A stretch of 64,000 nt of DNA, taken from assembly GCA_039621445.1 (NCBI GenBank), contig CP154954.1, positions 46,107,847-46,171,846 on the forward strand, read 5' to 3'. This document shows, in pieces, positions 22,001 through 31,000 of this stretch (position 1 is its first letter; each line of letters starts with the position of its first letter). A program made the position numbers and the translations under genes. Origin of the DNA: Euglena gracilis. Taxonomy: Eukaryota. The notes below the pieces were generated by a model. That model searched no databases. It was not told where the DNA came from and worked only from the letters and a program-made list of their open reading frames with translations.

Positions 22001-25000
22001 AAGGTTTTTCTTTTTTGAAAAGGGCGCAGGTCCATGTCATGTGCGGGAGCCCTGCCCGCAGCATCGGGGAGAATGCAGAGCCGGCCTCGGTGAAGTTCAC
22101 CGGGACCACCCCCAAGGATGTGCAGACGGAGGTGTGAAGTGGGTGTTTGCGTGCTGGCATTTGTTGTGTTGTTTCCAGTGCAACGCCATTGTGTCCGGGT
22201 CAGGGGAATTCTTACTCTGGATCTGGCCGGTTCAAGACATCCCCTGATCAGGGTGTTGCAAAAACAACAAAGGCGAAGGTGCTTCTTTTTCGGCTTAATT
22301 ATCCTTTCCCTCTATTTGAATCTTTGCTGCAATTGGGAGGGGGTTTTTTGCCAAGGAACACCACGAGTGATAATGGAAACAATTGTGAATGTCGATGCTC
22401 ACCTGTTTTTTTTTAAAGTCTGAAGGCCCCCCCCCCCCAGGCCAGGGTTTCTTCTCGAAGCGCCAAATTTTTTTTTGGGAAACGGTTTCAAAACGGCCTG
22501 TAGCCGCCTGCTTTTTGGGGGGGTCCATGCCGGGCTGGGTGGGTGAGGAGACCCGGGGGTCTTAAAAAGAGTCCTAGTGGGCATATCTTCAGGATGGCCA
22601 GATTCGACCAAAACGACACAAATCGTCAAGCAAAGCTATTTTTTCATTTGGAATCTGCACTGAATGTTCTGTGGCAGATTGACCAAGAACTTGATAACCA
22701 AAAATTGCAGACCCACGGCCACGGGGTTTCAATATGGAAACCACAGTGGGTGTCAATTTTGGGCTTCCAGAGTTTTTTCGGTGCTTTGTGCAAAAAAGGG
22801 GACCTGGGACCCACTTCCCCCCCTCCTCTGGTAGGACCCCCGTTCTTTGAAACATCTCTGGTCTGAACCCTCTGCATTTGACAAGAGGGTCAGAAGCAGT
22901 CAATTTTTTAAGCACTGGCCGACCCCCCCCGGGGTGGGTGATTGGTTTTTTTTCAAAGTGACTGACTTGTTTTTTGGCCCGGGACCCGGGGGGGGGGTCG
23001 GCGAGGAGTGCACAAAAGTGGCTTGAGTGACCCCGGCACCAAAGGCGCCGGGAAAAAAATCTTTTTTGGCCTAAAATGGCCTAAAGTGACTGGAAAATGG
23101 TCGTTTTTCTGAGTGGCCGACCCCCCGGGGGGGGAGTGACTGGCTGGTTTTCCGAAAATGGGTGACTGACTGGTTTTTTTAAAAAGTGGAGTGAAGCCCG
23201 GGGGGGGGGTCGGTAAAAAATTGTATGGCCAGAAGCCACTCTTAGTATTTTCACTCAAGCATCAGGAGATGTCCCGGACAACAATGTGCAATTTGGCATG
23301 CCCAGGTGTGATTGAAGTGGACTCCCACCAGGCTTCTTCAGGAAGTGCGCATCCCGCCCCTGCCCCCGGGGGGTGTGGGCAGACAGGGACAGGGGCATTT
23401 TCAACCCCCCCGGCAGGAGGGGGGGGTTGGGGTGGGTGGCATTATGTACAGCAGACCCCCGACACCAAAGCACGAGGGTCCAAAACCGACCCCCCCCCCC
23501 CGGGTGTATGCCTGCTCTGGGCAGGCACCCCATGGGACAAGCCACCCCCCTGGGTTGGTCAAAAAGAAGCCCGACCCCCACTCTAACCAGAACTGGCCAA
23601 AAGTGCCCATCTTTTACCGTGTTTGGGATTTTTTTTTGGAACACATCAGGCCAAAAATGCATTAAAAGTGTCATTTCCACCTTGATACACAGCGCTGGAG
23701 GAAAGTTTTTTTCCCCAGTCAGGGAGGGGGGCGGGCGGGGTCCCCCGGGGGGGGGGGACCCGGTTCAGTTTTTTTCCTTCAGAATTTTTTCCAGTGTCTG
23801 GCAAATGGCCAGCCAGTGGCCCCCCTGGGGTGCTTTATAAACAATTGCCTGGTCTCAGATCAATGTTTGCCACTTGTGATATTGATTGCACAATCTCCTC
23901 ACAGGGTGCTGTGGCTATGTTTTCTGAGACTGGTGAGAAGTTGGCAAAGTACAGCAAGGTTTGCTTTCAGTTTTGCCCCGATGCCAATGCCAGCCATTGC
24001 TTGGTTTTTACTGCACCACTCAAGTGAGTTGTACAAAGTTAAAAATCTGTGAAAAATGCAATTGCATGTGCATTGTGTGCGTTGTGCGTGTCTGTGTTCA
24101 GCACATACGAGCATTTACTCATTGGCTGCCCCCCCCCCCCCCCCGGGGGGGCCAGGTTTTTTTTCACTGGCTCTTGGCCTGGAGAGAGTGGGTGGGTGGG
24201 TGGGTCAGGAAATTTAAGCCAGACCCCACCTCAGCTCCTGGGGGTCAGGGAATTTCTTAAGCCGGAGGGTACCCTACCCCCCGGGGGGGGTCCAGCCAGC
24301 CAGCAGCTCAAATCCAGCCAGCAGCCCAAATTCGGGCTGGGAGCCCCCCCCCCCCCGGGGGTCGAGTGAAATAAAGTCGGGTCCAGCCCGGCCAGAGGCC
24401 GGGCCAGCCGGCCGAAGGCCGGCCCAGCCGGCCGCAGGCCGGCCAGCCAACTGGGCTGTCCAGCTCACTTATCCCTGCATTTTTCCCCCTCATCACAGCC
24501 CCTCCATCACAGCCCCCCAGCCTTGATCTAGCTCCACCCATCAAAATGTCGAAAATGGCCAAAATGTGTTAGAAAATTTTGTTTTTCCTCGACCCAGCCC
24601 AGCCCAGCCCGCTCCAGCCCCGGACCCCCCCTCCCCCCTATCCCCCCGGGGGGGGGGGGGGCCCACCCAGCAGCTCAAATCCAGCCAGCAGCCTTTTTGC
24701 CAGCCGGAGGCTGGACCCCCCTGGGGGGGGTGCTTAAGAAATTCCCTGCTGGGGGTCCAGCCAGCATTCATTGGGGACCATTTTGAATTTCTTCTGATCC
24801 TTTTAGGCCATTTGTTTTTGTTTTGGGGGCTATTTTCGGCAATTTTGCCAATTTTTGGCCATTCTGCGAAATTCCGGGGAAGTGTTCGGCCCAGGCTTCT
24901 TTTTAAGTCAGGTCCGGGCCGGGGGGTCCGGCCCGGACCCCCCCCCCCCGGGGGGCCCCCGCCCGAGGCGCTGGGTATACCTTTTCGGCGCGAAGCGCCG

Positions 25001-28000: not shown

Positions 28001-31000
28001 TAGCCCAGCCCAGCCCCGGACCCCCCACCCCCCGTCCTCCCCCCCTATCCCCTCGACCGGGGGGGTCCAGTCAGTGGCTTTTTTTTCCAGCCAGAGGCTG
28101 GACCCCCCCCCCCCCCGGGTGCTTAAGATATCCCCTGACTGTGCAGATTATGATTGGTTTGGAATTGTGTTGGAAGAAAATTCAGGGGGGTGTTCGACAA
28201 ATTCTGACAGATATCTTCACACTTGATTGAGAAAGGACCAGGCAATTGCTTAAGCACTGACCGGGGTGGGTGATTGGTTTTTTCAGAGTGAGACTGGTTT
28301 TTGGCCCGGACCCCCTCCCCCTCCCCCGGCCGGGGGGGCCAGGAGTGGGCAAAAGTGGCTTGAGTGACCCCGGCGCCGAAGGCGCCGGAAAATTTTTTTG
28401 GCCTGAAATAGCTTAAAGTGACTGGAAAGTGGCCGTTTTTCTGAGTGGCCGACCCCAGGGGTTAGTGACTGACTGTTTTTTTTGAAAACGAGTGATTGAG
28501 TGGTTTTTAAAAAGTGGAGTGACCCCCCCCTCTCCTCCCCGGGGGTCGGTAAAAAATTATATGGGAAGGACCAGTAGACCCTCTCCCCTCCACCCGAGTT
28601 GTCACAGAGGGTTTCGAGAAGAAACAGACGGGGTGGCATTGGTTTTTCTTGGCGAAACATGGTTTAAGGAGGTGGGGGATTTCAGTTTTTATTATTTATT
28701 TATTATGCATTATTTTTATTTATTTATTTCAGTTTATGTTTTATTTGCTTTGCATCATTTTGTGTGTTCCAACTTTGTGTTTCAGGCGCAACCGCAGAAA
28801 TGAAGGCAGGGCGGAATCGCTTCTGGTTTGCCACCGAAGAGCAGTGCTTGGCACTGAATGCGCAACTGCAGGACACCTTCAAGATCACTGATGCCTGGAT
28901 CTGCGAAGTGACCCCCAATGGGGGCAAGCGATTGCACCCGAAGGAAGTTGCAGAGGTGTGCGTAGTTTGAATATGGCTATCTGTTTTTTTTTATGGTGCA
29001 TCAAAGCAGAGTGTTTTAATCTGCCTGCCCATTGCACACAAAAATAATTGGGCTCTCACCCCAGGCCCCCCCCCCTGGACGTTTGGGGCAGGGGAACCTT
29101 GCTGAGGGGAACCACCGAAGGGTCCCCCCCAGGCTTGTGCTTAGTCGGGTGCCTACCCCACGGGGGGGGGTGCTAGGGGCAGGCACCCCATAGCACCCGA
29201 TCCGACCCCCCCCCCCGGGGGGGTAGGGTTTTGGGGGGTGCCTGCCCCTAGCAGGCACCCCCCTCCGACCCTGGCGCCGAAGGCGCCGGGGGGCCGGGCC
29301 CGGAAAAGGCCATTTTCAATGAACATTTTCTGGGTCCCGCCCGGACCCCTATCCCCCCCGGGGGGGTGTGCCTGCTAGGGGCAGGCACCCTATCGCCCCC
29401 CCCCCCCCAGGTTGGTAAGCACAAGCATGGTCCCCCCCCCCCAGGGGTTGCTTTAGTCCAGGGTTTCCCACTGATTCGTACACGAATAAGTACGAATTGC
29501 CGAGATTTGCCAAAATACGAATAAGTACGAATAAGTACGAATGAAAAATTCAGTTACGAATAAGTACGATTTGCCAAGTAGAAAAAGGTACAATTTTCTA
29601 CACCATTTGCACTGACTTGAAGGGCCTCGCGCTTATTGAATCAGGGCAGTCCATGCACACTTGTCTCGAGCCGCCAGCCCCTTTTTTCCAGCCAGTAGCT
29701 CCCAGCTGGGCTGCGGACCCCCCCCCCCCCAGCGGTCCAGCTAGCACCTTTTGCCAGCCAGCCAGCTGGGCCCCCCCCCCTGGGTCCTAGCTCACAAAAT
29801 TGAATTGCCCTGGCACATATGGCATAAAGTGGAGCCCCCACACTTAAGTGTGGGGTCCTGTGGGGGTTATGTGTGAGGGGGGTGTGTGGGGGGATGTGTG
29901 GGGGGGTGTGGGGGGGGCAGTGTGGGGGGGTGTGTGGGGGGGCAGTGTGGGGGGGTGTGTGGGGGGGTGGGGTGGGGGGGGTGTGAGTGGGGTGTGTGGG
30001 GGGTGCCAAATCTGAGGAAAATGGATTTTCTTTCCGTTGCCTTGCACACACAAGGGATAATGTTATTTTGGTTCTGCGGGGGGGGTCCGGGGGGGGGGGG
30101 CGGGCCCCCCCCCGTGCCGCGGCCGAAGGCCACGGCGCGACGAGGCCGAAGGCCGAGTAAGTCAAAAAATGACACCCGAACAGTTGCGCATTCAACTTGG
30201 GTTTCAAAAAAGAATCAGGCTGTTGCTCACCCACGGTACTGTAATCCAACAAAGTGGATTTTCTTTCCGTTGCCCTGCACACACAAGGGATAATGTTATT
30301 TTGGTTCTGGGGGGGGGTCCGGGGGGGCGGGCCCCCCCCCCCCCCCGGGGCGCGGCCGAAGGCCGCGGCGCGACGAGGCCGAAGGCCGAGTAAGTCAAAA
30401 AAATGACACCCGAAGAGTTGCGCACAGTCAACATGAGTGTGGGAAGGTAGTGTGGGGGGGTGTGTGGGGGGGGTGTGTGGGGGGGGGGGTGGGGGGGGGG
30501 GGTTGTGGGGTACTGTGGGGTACTGTGGGGGCTCCACTTTACGCCATGTCTCTGCCCTGGTCTAAACGGTCTTTCAGTTTGGTTGGACAGTTTGGTGGAC
30601 AGAATTCAGTTTGAACTGATTGATGTCAAAAACCGCCAATGCATGTCATCTAACCTAATCTAACGGCAAGCAGCCGTTGGCATGTTTTGCAGAGGTGACT
30701 GCGAAGAACGTCATCACGAGTATTTGTTCGTGCATGGAATGCTGGACAACATCAGTCGCAAAGAAGGAATGTGTTTTTCCTGTAATGTTTTGTATTTTTT
30801 TCTCACGGCGACTTTTTTCCCCACAAATTTCGCTAAAATGAGTTCGGCATTTGGATAGTTTCCAAAGTGAATGACCTGTTTCGCTTGCTTTTCCCAGTTT
30901 CAGAACGTTGAAGATGTGCCCAAGGAAGCATACCAAATGGTCACCATTTGGTATGCTATGTGCTATCACCTATACATGGTCCTTTTTTGAAGTACAAATA

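Follow-up and report, generated by a model that had tools for sequence, protein, structure and literature searches.

Koziol and Durnford are said to have described, in 2008, light-harvesting complex (LHC) polyproteins of Euglena in which units of mixed types are joined by decapeptide linkers. Here we analyze a 64,000-nucleotide stretch of the Euglena gracilis genome (assembly GCA_039621445.1, contig CP154954.1, positions 46,107,847 to 46,171,846 of the forward strand; hereafter the window, whose own positions are used throughout), the + strand of which carries an E. gracilis-type nuclear gene for a polyprotein of the photosystem I (PSI) subunit PsaD. The gene consists of canonical units 1 to 3, a truncated unit derived from PsaD and a canonical terminal unit, and the truncated unit, called the divergent unit below, is the subject of this study. 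Our analysis indicates that it is spliced in frame into essentially all mature transcripts of the gene, that it cannot be an ordinary PsaD, and that its own sequence may have been under selection.

The synthesis of Euglena plastid proteins as polyproteins with short linkers is already known (PMC4938576), and proteolytic processing of other Euglena polyproteins has been reported (PMC4938576, PMC6242988). A divergent penultimate unit is also known, since the RBCS polyprotein of Euglena longa, as presented in the accessible part of PMC4938576, contains in that place a highly divergent unit that bears in-frame deletions and is separated by a linker from the complete canonical unit at the end of the chain. 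According to the accessible text of four recent cryo-electron microscopy (cryo-EM) studies of Euglena PSI, PsaD was taken from short-read transcriptomes or read from density, and one deposited precursor consists of three units. In literature searches, and in the accessible main text of four Euglena PSI structure papers and one preprint, we found no description of a divergent PsaD-like unit or of a PsaD polyprotein. The occurrence of a truncated derivative of the PsaD fold within a PsaD polyprotein appears to be new, as does a five-unit gene model.

Results

The divergent unit is made up of three + strand exons of 54, 100, and 170 nucleotides (324 in sum), each preceded by AG and followed by GT. 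Exon 1 (23905-23958) encodes the unit's own linker plus three extra residues. Exon 2 (25551-25650) encodes new N-terminal sequence together with the initial beta-strands of the PsaD core, and ends in phase 1 inside the glycine codon of PTG, as in the canonical units. Exon 3 (28786-28955), which carries the Pfam and PDB matches to PsaD described below, encodes a strand, a helix (TEEQCLAL...) and a hairpin. When joined, the exons give 108 codons with zero stops in one frame, while the remaining two frames are closed by stops, and in the spliced sequence this frame is already open in the last exon of unit 3 and continues without a break across the divergent unit to the terminal unit. The linker on the N-terminal side is identical to the canonical linker at 13 of 15 residues, the one on the C-terminal side is identical to the divergent unit's own at 10 of 15, and both start with GAVAMF. 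By RNA joints and frame, the unit is thus encoded on one mRNA in frame with the other units, and it is flanked by linkers like those between them, as is characteristic of units of Euglena plastid polyproteins. A sequence-only reading of the window had proposed three PsaD-core exons of about 108 residues at these positions, with TEEQ replacing RKEQ, no stops, and intact splice sites, phases and linker, and our analysis recovers all of these features, the named motifs included.

An index of sequencing runs listed no RNA run containing the stretch, and the RNA evidence was drawn from the raw RNA-seq runs X21 and X24 (about 5-6% of each was read) and from contigs of X1 and X6, over positions 21900-41899 at 97% likeness. 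Every predicted joint of the divergent unit is seen in all four runs, with 439 reads in X21 and 13 in X24 for 22131/23905, 494 and 15 for 23958/25551, 609 and 8 for 25650/28786, and 314 and 14 for 28955/32525; each of the four lies on one contig, at a depth above 1000, in X1 and likewise in X6. In the stranded run X24, the first mate falls on the - strand in all joint reads, as + strand RNA predicts. The adjoining constitutive joints have 446 reads upstream (21974/22055) and 338 downstream (32570/35134) in X21, and as the counts for the divergent unit are about the same, inclusion must be close to complete. The four joints are those that had been put forward earlier for an RNA-seq check, and the skipping joint from 22131 straight to 32525, which had been set beforehand against the proposal, is absent among the 15 joints listed of 220, with inclusion near 100%. 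All three exons are therefore present, in frame, in essentially all mature transcripts. Among the tail joints, the core exon is joined to a unit-3-type tail in 498 reads and to a terminal-type tail in 510, and this ratio of about 1:1 fits one five-unit mRNA.

Exon 3 alone (56 residues) passes the cut-off of the Pfam PsaD family (PF02531; 22.4 bits) with a score of 39.6 bits and an E-value of 4.6e-10, covering profile positions 44-98 of 136, and exon 2 alone (33 residues) gives zero Pfam matches. A search of the PDB with exon 3 returned 81 distinct sequences at E <= 1, and the best 60 of the 81 are chain D of PSI entries, including four Euglena PSI sets. The Pfam score and the PDB matches together mean that the divergent unit is real and not a product of chance. 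An AlphaFold2 (AF2) model of exon 3 alone, made with and leaning on a PsaD alignment, shows the PsaD helix and hairpin at a mean predicted local distance difference test score (pLDDT) of 69, and the 8 best Foldseek rows obtained with this model are PsaD chains with template modeling (TM) scores of 0.59-0.65, yet all with E-values above 0.1.

The other parts of the PF02531 profile, namely the N-terminal part including GSTG, the C-terminal arm (profile positions about 99-136) and the invariant core residues, do not find a full counterpart in the divergent unit. In comparison with the canonical units, it lacks the N-terminal part of about 57 residues (extension plus GSTG), the 39-residue C-terminal arm, a two-residue insert and one residue of the hairpin. 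Unrelated sequence takes the place of GSTG and the residues preceding it, and the unit stops seven residues past the LHP motif of the hairpin. The alignment therefore agrees with the earlier description of a unit without N-terminal extension, GSTG or C-terminal arm. The introns of the unit, including the 3.6-kb intron behind it, hold no relic exons of the lost parts and give chance-level matches only. Out of 25 columns that are invariant in 20 outgroup PsaDs, 17 are kept and 8 are changed, the R and K of RKEQ among the latter; these two also count among the 8 of 10 basic core residues that are gone. Without its ten-residue linker, the predicted product has 98 residues, a mass of 11.1 kDa and an isoelectric point (pI) of 5.2, compared with pI values of 8.6 and 6.2 in canonical units. 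In solved PSI structures, PsaC is clamped by the C-terminal arm of PsaD, and the lysine of PsaD that is cross-linked to ferredoxin is located in this arm. The divergent unit cannot be an ordinary PsaD. Because the arm and the basic surface are missing, it is not expected to bind stably at the PsaD site or to dock ferredoxin, and the ferredoxin-docking role once suggested for it is unlikely given the loss of most basic core residues, the pI of about 5.2 and the absence of the arm with the cross-linking lysine.

In a tree built from 78 aligned columns of 27 PsaD sequences, the divergent unit groups within the euglenid PsaDs with support of 98/89. The divergent and canonical units have in common the phase-1 intron in the glycine codon of PTG and a phase-0 boundary before the linker, and their homologous exons are 66-75% identical in nucleotide sequence. 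The divergent unit arose by internal duplication of a euglenid PsaD unit. An origin from a different PsaD lineage was also considered, as the unit lacks the two-residue insert and has FKITD as many PsaDs do, and is ruled out by the tree together with the common intron.

Relatives of the unit were sought in several collections. In protein collections, exon 3 returned 8 longer candidates, none of them significant, and no near candidate; the collection holds a precursor without the divergent unit, so this negative is a weak one. A representative library gave 9 matches at E <= 0.001, in which the closest real relatives are ordinary PsaDs with 47-53% identity, while among the matches checked with Pfam, P0002, P0003, P0006, and P0009 turned out to be unrelated repeat proteins. 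A metagenome scan with exon 3 gave 172 pattern matches and 0 confirmed loci. A second scan, with the euglenid-type fragment P0013, gave 224 confirmed loci, the best 80 of which match only from residue 61-89 on, with no euglenid linker or extension. The best score in the ESM Atlas was 0.86, with no family.

Residue conservation within the unit suggests selection on its own sequence. Over 88 columns, the canonical residue is kept at 30 of 49 conserved columns (at least 90% in 20 non-euglenid PsaDs) versus 10 of 39 variable ones (Fisher p 0.0012). With the 75 securely aligned columns, the counts are 28 of 46 and 10 of 29 (p 0.034), and at a 95% threshold 26 of 40 and 12 of 35 (p 0.011; Mann-Whitney p 0.0098). 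Among hydrophobic core positions, 20 of 31 are identical and 25 of 31 are still hydrophobic, while at polar positions identity is limited to 12 of 35 (p 0.026); the overall core identity is 37/75. For the core exon, the synonymous distance (dS) from the divergent unit to each of the others is 1.16-1.31, which is close to saturation and resembles the distance of unit 1 from units 2, 3, and 5, and the nonsynonymous distance (dN) is 0.40-0.49 versus 0.12 among canonical units, with pairwise dN/dS for the divergent unit of 0.31-0.42. Two variants within the unit, each in about one-third of RNA reads (23916 T>C and 28868 G>C), are both synonymous; as 21.7% of possible changes are synonymous, the chance of this under neutrality is 0.047. 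As far as can be judged from sequence, these patterns suggest that the fold was maintained, and may be so still, while the surface was remodeled.

Surrounding locus and deposited sequences

The gene lies in a large inverted duplication. Self-blastn aligns 1-22337 (+) with 63453-43171 (-), about 22 kb at 93-98% identity with introns included. The left arm (1-22337, + strand) carries canonical units 1 (partly off the window), 2, and 3 of the + strand gene, and the right arm (43171-63453, - strand) carries the inverted copy with units 1-3 only, having neither the divergent nor the terminal unit. Between them, the unique center (22338-43170) is not matched by either arm and contains the divergent unit together with an additional canonical unit. 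By tblastn, the exons of the divergent unit occur in the window on the + strand only, and the absence of the unit from the inverted gene copy, as claimed earlier, is confirmed in this way. The - strand copy ends after unit 3 at a donor identical to 22131, with no terminal unit and no stop of its own except a TGA located in the intron, two codons from its start. Either truncation of the gene copy or a join made during assembly may account for this. RNA depth is low just past 22131, indicating that an unspliced end there is little used.

Unit 3 ends in two + strand exons of the C-terminal arm. The first (21939-21982) is supported by the joint 21974->22055 (446 reads in X21; contigs of X1 and X6), and a joint 41890->21939 is also seen. 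The last (22063-22131) is a 100% match to residues 476-500 of the deposited protein P0011, and its donor at 22131 is the one spliced to the divergent unit. The terminal unit, also on the + strand, begins with an exon encoding a variant linker (32525-32570; joints 28955/32525 and 32570/35134, the latter with 338 reads in X21), followed by the exon of the N-terminal extension (35134-35237; RNA joints and translation) and by an exon ending in GSTG (39669-39737), after which comes a GC..GC intron (joint 39737/40244, 470 reads in X21). The exon homologous to divergent exon 2 (40244-40328; joint 40328/41705, 345 reads in X21) leads to the core exon (41705-41892), whose end is ambiguous by 2 nucleotides and for which a loose end at 41894 (510 reads in X21) continues as the sequence at 42101. 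This core exon is 98.5% identical over 196 nucleotides to the core exon of unit 3 (21225-21420). The first exon of the C-terminal arm (42099-42140) is placed by sequence and alignment, and the last exon (42774-42836), which matches P0011 residues 676-698, contains the stop TGA at 42834-42836.

Three introns in this part of the gene are non-conventional, without GT..AG: 21975-22062 (446 RNA reads in X21), 39738-40243 (GC..GC, 470 reads in X21) and 42141-42773, the last of which was inferred from the frame and P0011. An 8-nucleotide repeat at both ends of 21975-22062 allows its joint to be placed anywhere from 21974/22055 to 21982/22063. The window also contains a dispersed intronic repeat of about 300 nucleotides at 84-89% identity (8632-8923, 16515-16807, 29130-29430, and 47331-47626), with the copy at 29130-29430 just behind divergent exon 3. 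Exonic variants at 23916, 28868, 32551, and 40312 are each found in about one-third of the X21 RNA reads, and all are synonymous. Such one-third variants would fit three haplotypes, one of them differing, and a preprint, in its accessible part, mentions a proposed triploid genome. Short segments between long C or G runs (26522-26542, 34029, and 39352-39375) collect hundreds of partly fitting reads and false opposite-strand joints, and we take both as a low-complexity artifact.

P0011 (UniRef/UniParc, named Euglena gracilis, 698 residues) matches the core exons of units 2 and 3 with 100% identity and does not contain the divergent unit. It has the same length as chain D of PDB 9VFJ, the entry of PMC12577709. 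Its sequence is composed of the presequence, unit 1, unit 2, the N-terminal part and core of unit 3, and then the tail of the terminal unit. Because the switch falls within two core exons that share 98.5% identity over 196 nucleotides, P0011 is probably a short-read assembly collapse hiding two units; it may also come from a separate three-unit gene elsewhere. Another record, P0015 (199 residues, from an 866-kb contig), corresponds to a euglenid-type PsaD in whose predicted sequence a short intron, again at PTG|G, was read as coding, and another euglenid-type genomic PsaD copy is therefore present in public data.

Discussion

Our preferred interpretation, held tentatively and at slightly less than an even chance, is that the divergent unit is a co-translated, released and soluble mini-PsaD under relaxed constraint that has a different partner. 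The unit would be translated once per four PsaD units from this gene and would then be freed by the plastid polyprotein protease, which would cut at the linkers on either side and yield an acidic product of about 11 kDa. The released unit would be unable to sit in the PsaD site of PSI or to attract ferredoxin as PsaD does. The step of which we are least certain is the last one, in which relaxed purifying selection would still maintain the unit as a small, soluble protein with the PsaD core and another partner, for example as a factor for PSI assembly at the stromal ridge. In its most specific form, a working euglenid-specific mini-PsaD, soluble and acidic and produced from one precursor at a fixed ratio of 1:4 to PsaD, would act off the PsaD site, for instance when the PsaC/D/E stromal ridge is assembled or turned over, a proposal we consider rather unlikely. 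The earlier claim that the unit is under selection as a different protein made together with PsaD accordingly holds up in one part, as the unit is a PsaD derivative spliced in frame with true PsaD units, while for selection the data are suggestive.

Several observations weigh against this interpretation. The intact frame, splice sites and linkers of the divergent unit are not independent evidence of selection, because a stop or frameshift would also destroy the terminal unit, and the linkers are needed to free the neighboring units; these needs explain all three features. The end branch of the divergent unit in the tree has a length of 6.86 against a median of 0.14, or about 50-fold. In a three-taxon split of the core exon, the branch dN/dS of the divergent unit is 0.60-0.67, about 20 times the value of about 0.03 for canonical units, and neutrality is not rejected, since the bootstrap 95% interval is 0.16-4.9 and 27% of 855 usable replicates are at least 1 (145 of 1000 replicates failed through saturation). 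The dN/dS check proposed earlier hence gives a point estimate below 1 with an interval that includes neutrality. Among the highly conserved core columns, 18 of 46 are changed, invariant ones among them, and early constraint followed by later decay fits the column pattern equally. The GC content at third codon positions (GC3) is 0.64 in the divergent unit versus 0.78. No orthologue of the unit was found in the protein collections, the representative library, the metagenomes or the ESM Atlas, and the PDB sequence search gave no solved chain closely matching it, the Euglena PSI entries having canonical PsaD, although a protein that is unmodeled or substoichiometric would stay invisible in solved PSI entries. 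Finally, in P0013, a transcript-derived euglenid-type PsaD fragment from a 1000-nucleotide contig that is itself possibly mis-joined, the terminal unit comes after a canonical C-terminal arm and a standard linker, with no divergent unit.

Most of these observations also bear on a second explanation, in which the unit is a tolerated relic, that is, a decaying copy that escaped homogenization, had its ends deleted and survives by staying in frame, its product being cut out and degraded as a by-product or serving as a spacer. We regard this as a serious possibility, though one that we would lean against. The very long branch, a branch dN/dS indistinguishable from 1, the lower GC3 and the canonical arm before the terminal unit of P0013 are all in its favor, as are the loss of both PSI-anchoring parts along with invariant residues, the five or six in-frame indel events that separate the divergent from the canonical unit, and the precedent of the E. 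longa RBCS polyprotein with its highly divergent penultimate unit (PMC4938576). However, a dS near saturation implies that the divergent unit is old, yet about half of the core (37/75) is still identical and the pattern of hydrophobic positions persists. The frame would survive skipping of all three exons (324 nucleotides) or of exons 2 and 3 (270 nucleotides), yet inclusion is near complete. Both expressed variants in the unit are synonymous, and a unit that makes up about one-tenth of a very highly expressed precursor would presumably be a cost.

Could the unit instead be an alternative PSI subunit, that is, a minimal PsaD isoform that occupies the PsaD site in some PSI complexes or docks ferredoxin? 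It does keep PsaD core motifs, passes the Pfam threshold and is encoded on the same mRNA as PsaD. Set against this are the missing arm, which in PsaD clamps PsaC, and the missing N-terminal strand region, the acidic character that comes with the loss of R and K of RKEQ and six more basic residues, and the Euglena PSI entries 9VFJ, 9VJS, 9V7T/9V7U, and 9UAS, which carry canonical PsaD as chain D; eight core subunits are reported for Euglena PSI in the accessible text of that literature. We consider such a role improbable. That the divergent exons are not in the product at all, being skipped or reflecting annotation or assembly noise, is a reading to which we give next to no weight, as the deposited 698-residue precursor without the unit, which would favor it, is just what an assembly collapse would give by joining units 1-3 to the terminal tail across 98.5% identical core exons, and as all four junctions are seen in all four runs with hundreds of X21 reads.

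The locus and the RNA reads indicate four canonical units plus one truncated derivative, so the gene model in use appears incomplete. If the divergent unit is functional, it would be a new photosystem-related protein and would illustrate how polyprotein genes can create new proteins with built-in stoichiometry, and a working mini-PsaD, if true, would be the first PsaD-fold protein with a role other than that of a PSI subunit. If it is a relic, it documents how, within a highly expressed polyprotein, units decay once concerted evolution no longer reaches them, in parallel to the E. longa RBCS unit.

Among known systems, canonical E. gracilis PsaD (P0011; PDB 9VFJ, 9VJS, 9V7T, and 9UAS) is like the divergent unit in gene, mRNA, linker type, clade and PTG|G intron, and in the core motifs AEM, EQCLAL, PNG, and LHPK. 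The divergent unit differs in having 108 rather than 199-201 residues, in lacking the N-terminal extension, GSTG, the arm and the PR insert, and in being acidic and far faster evolving. Cyanobacterial PsaDs (P0016, and P0017, named Planktothrix tepida) can be aligned with its core over about 75 residues at 45-52% identity; unlike the divergent unit, each is a complete protein of a single domain in which GSTG, the C-terminal arm and, as in the canonical Euglena units, the two-residue insert are present. This insert, which follows FK in P0016, P0017, and the canonical Euglena units, agrees with the cyanobacterial origin proposed in the accessible part of PMC12577709; the divergent unit is without it.

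The divergent RBCS unit of E. longa has the same penultimate place in a plastid polyprotein (PMC4938576). It differs in belonging to another protein family and to a non-photosynthetic species in which, according to the accessible part of that paper, processing was not detected, and the loss of whole terminal segments is seen only in the PsaD-derived unit. The LHC polyproteins of Euglena, from what is available of the work on them, resemble the PsaD gene in a different respect, with one presequence, several mature proteins, short linkers and unlike units co-translated in fixed ratios. In those polyproteins, all units are full-length proteins from working LHC subfamilies, whereas the PsaD gene has one truncated derivative among its units.

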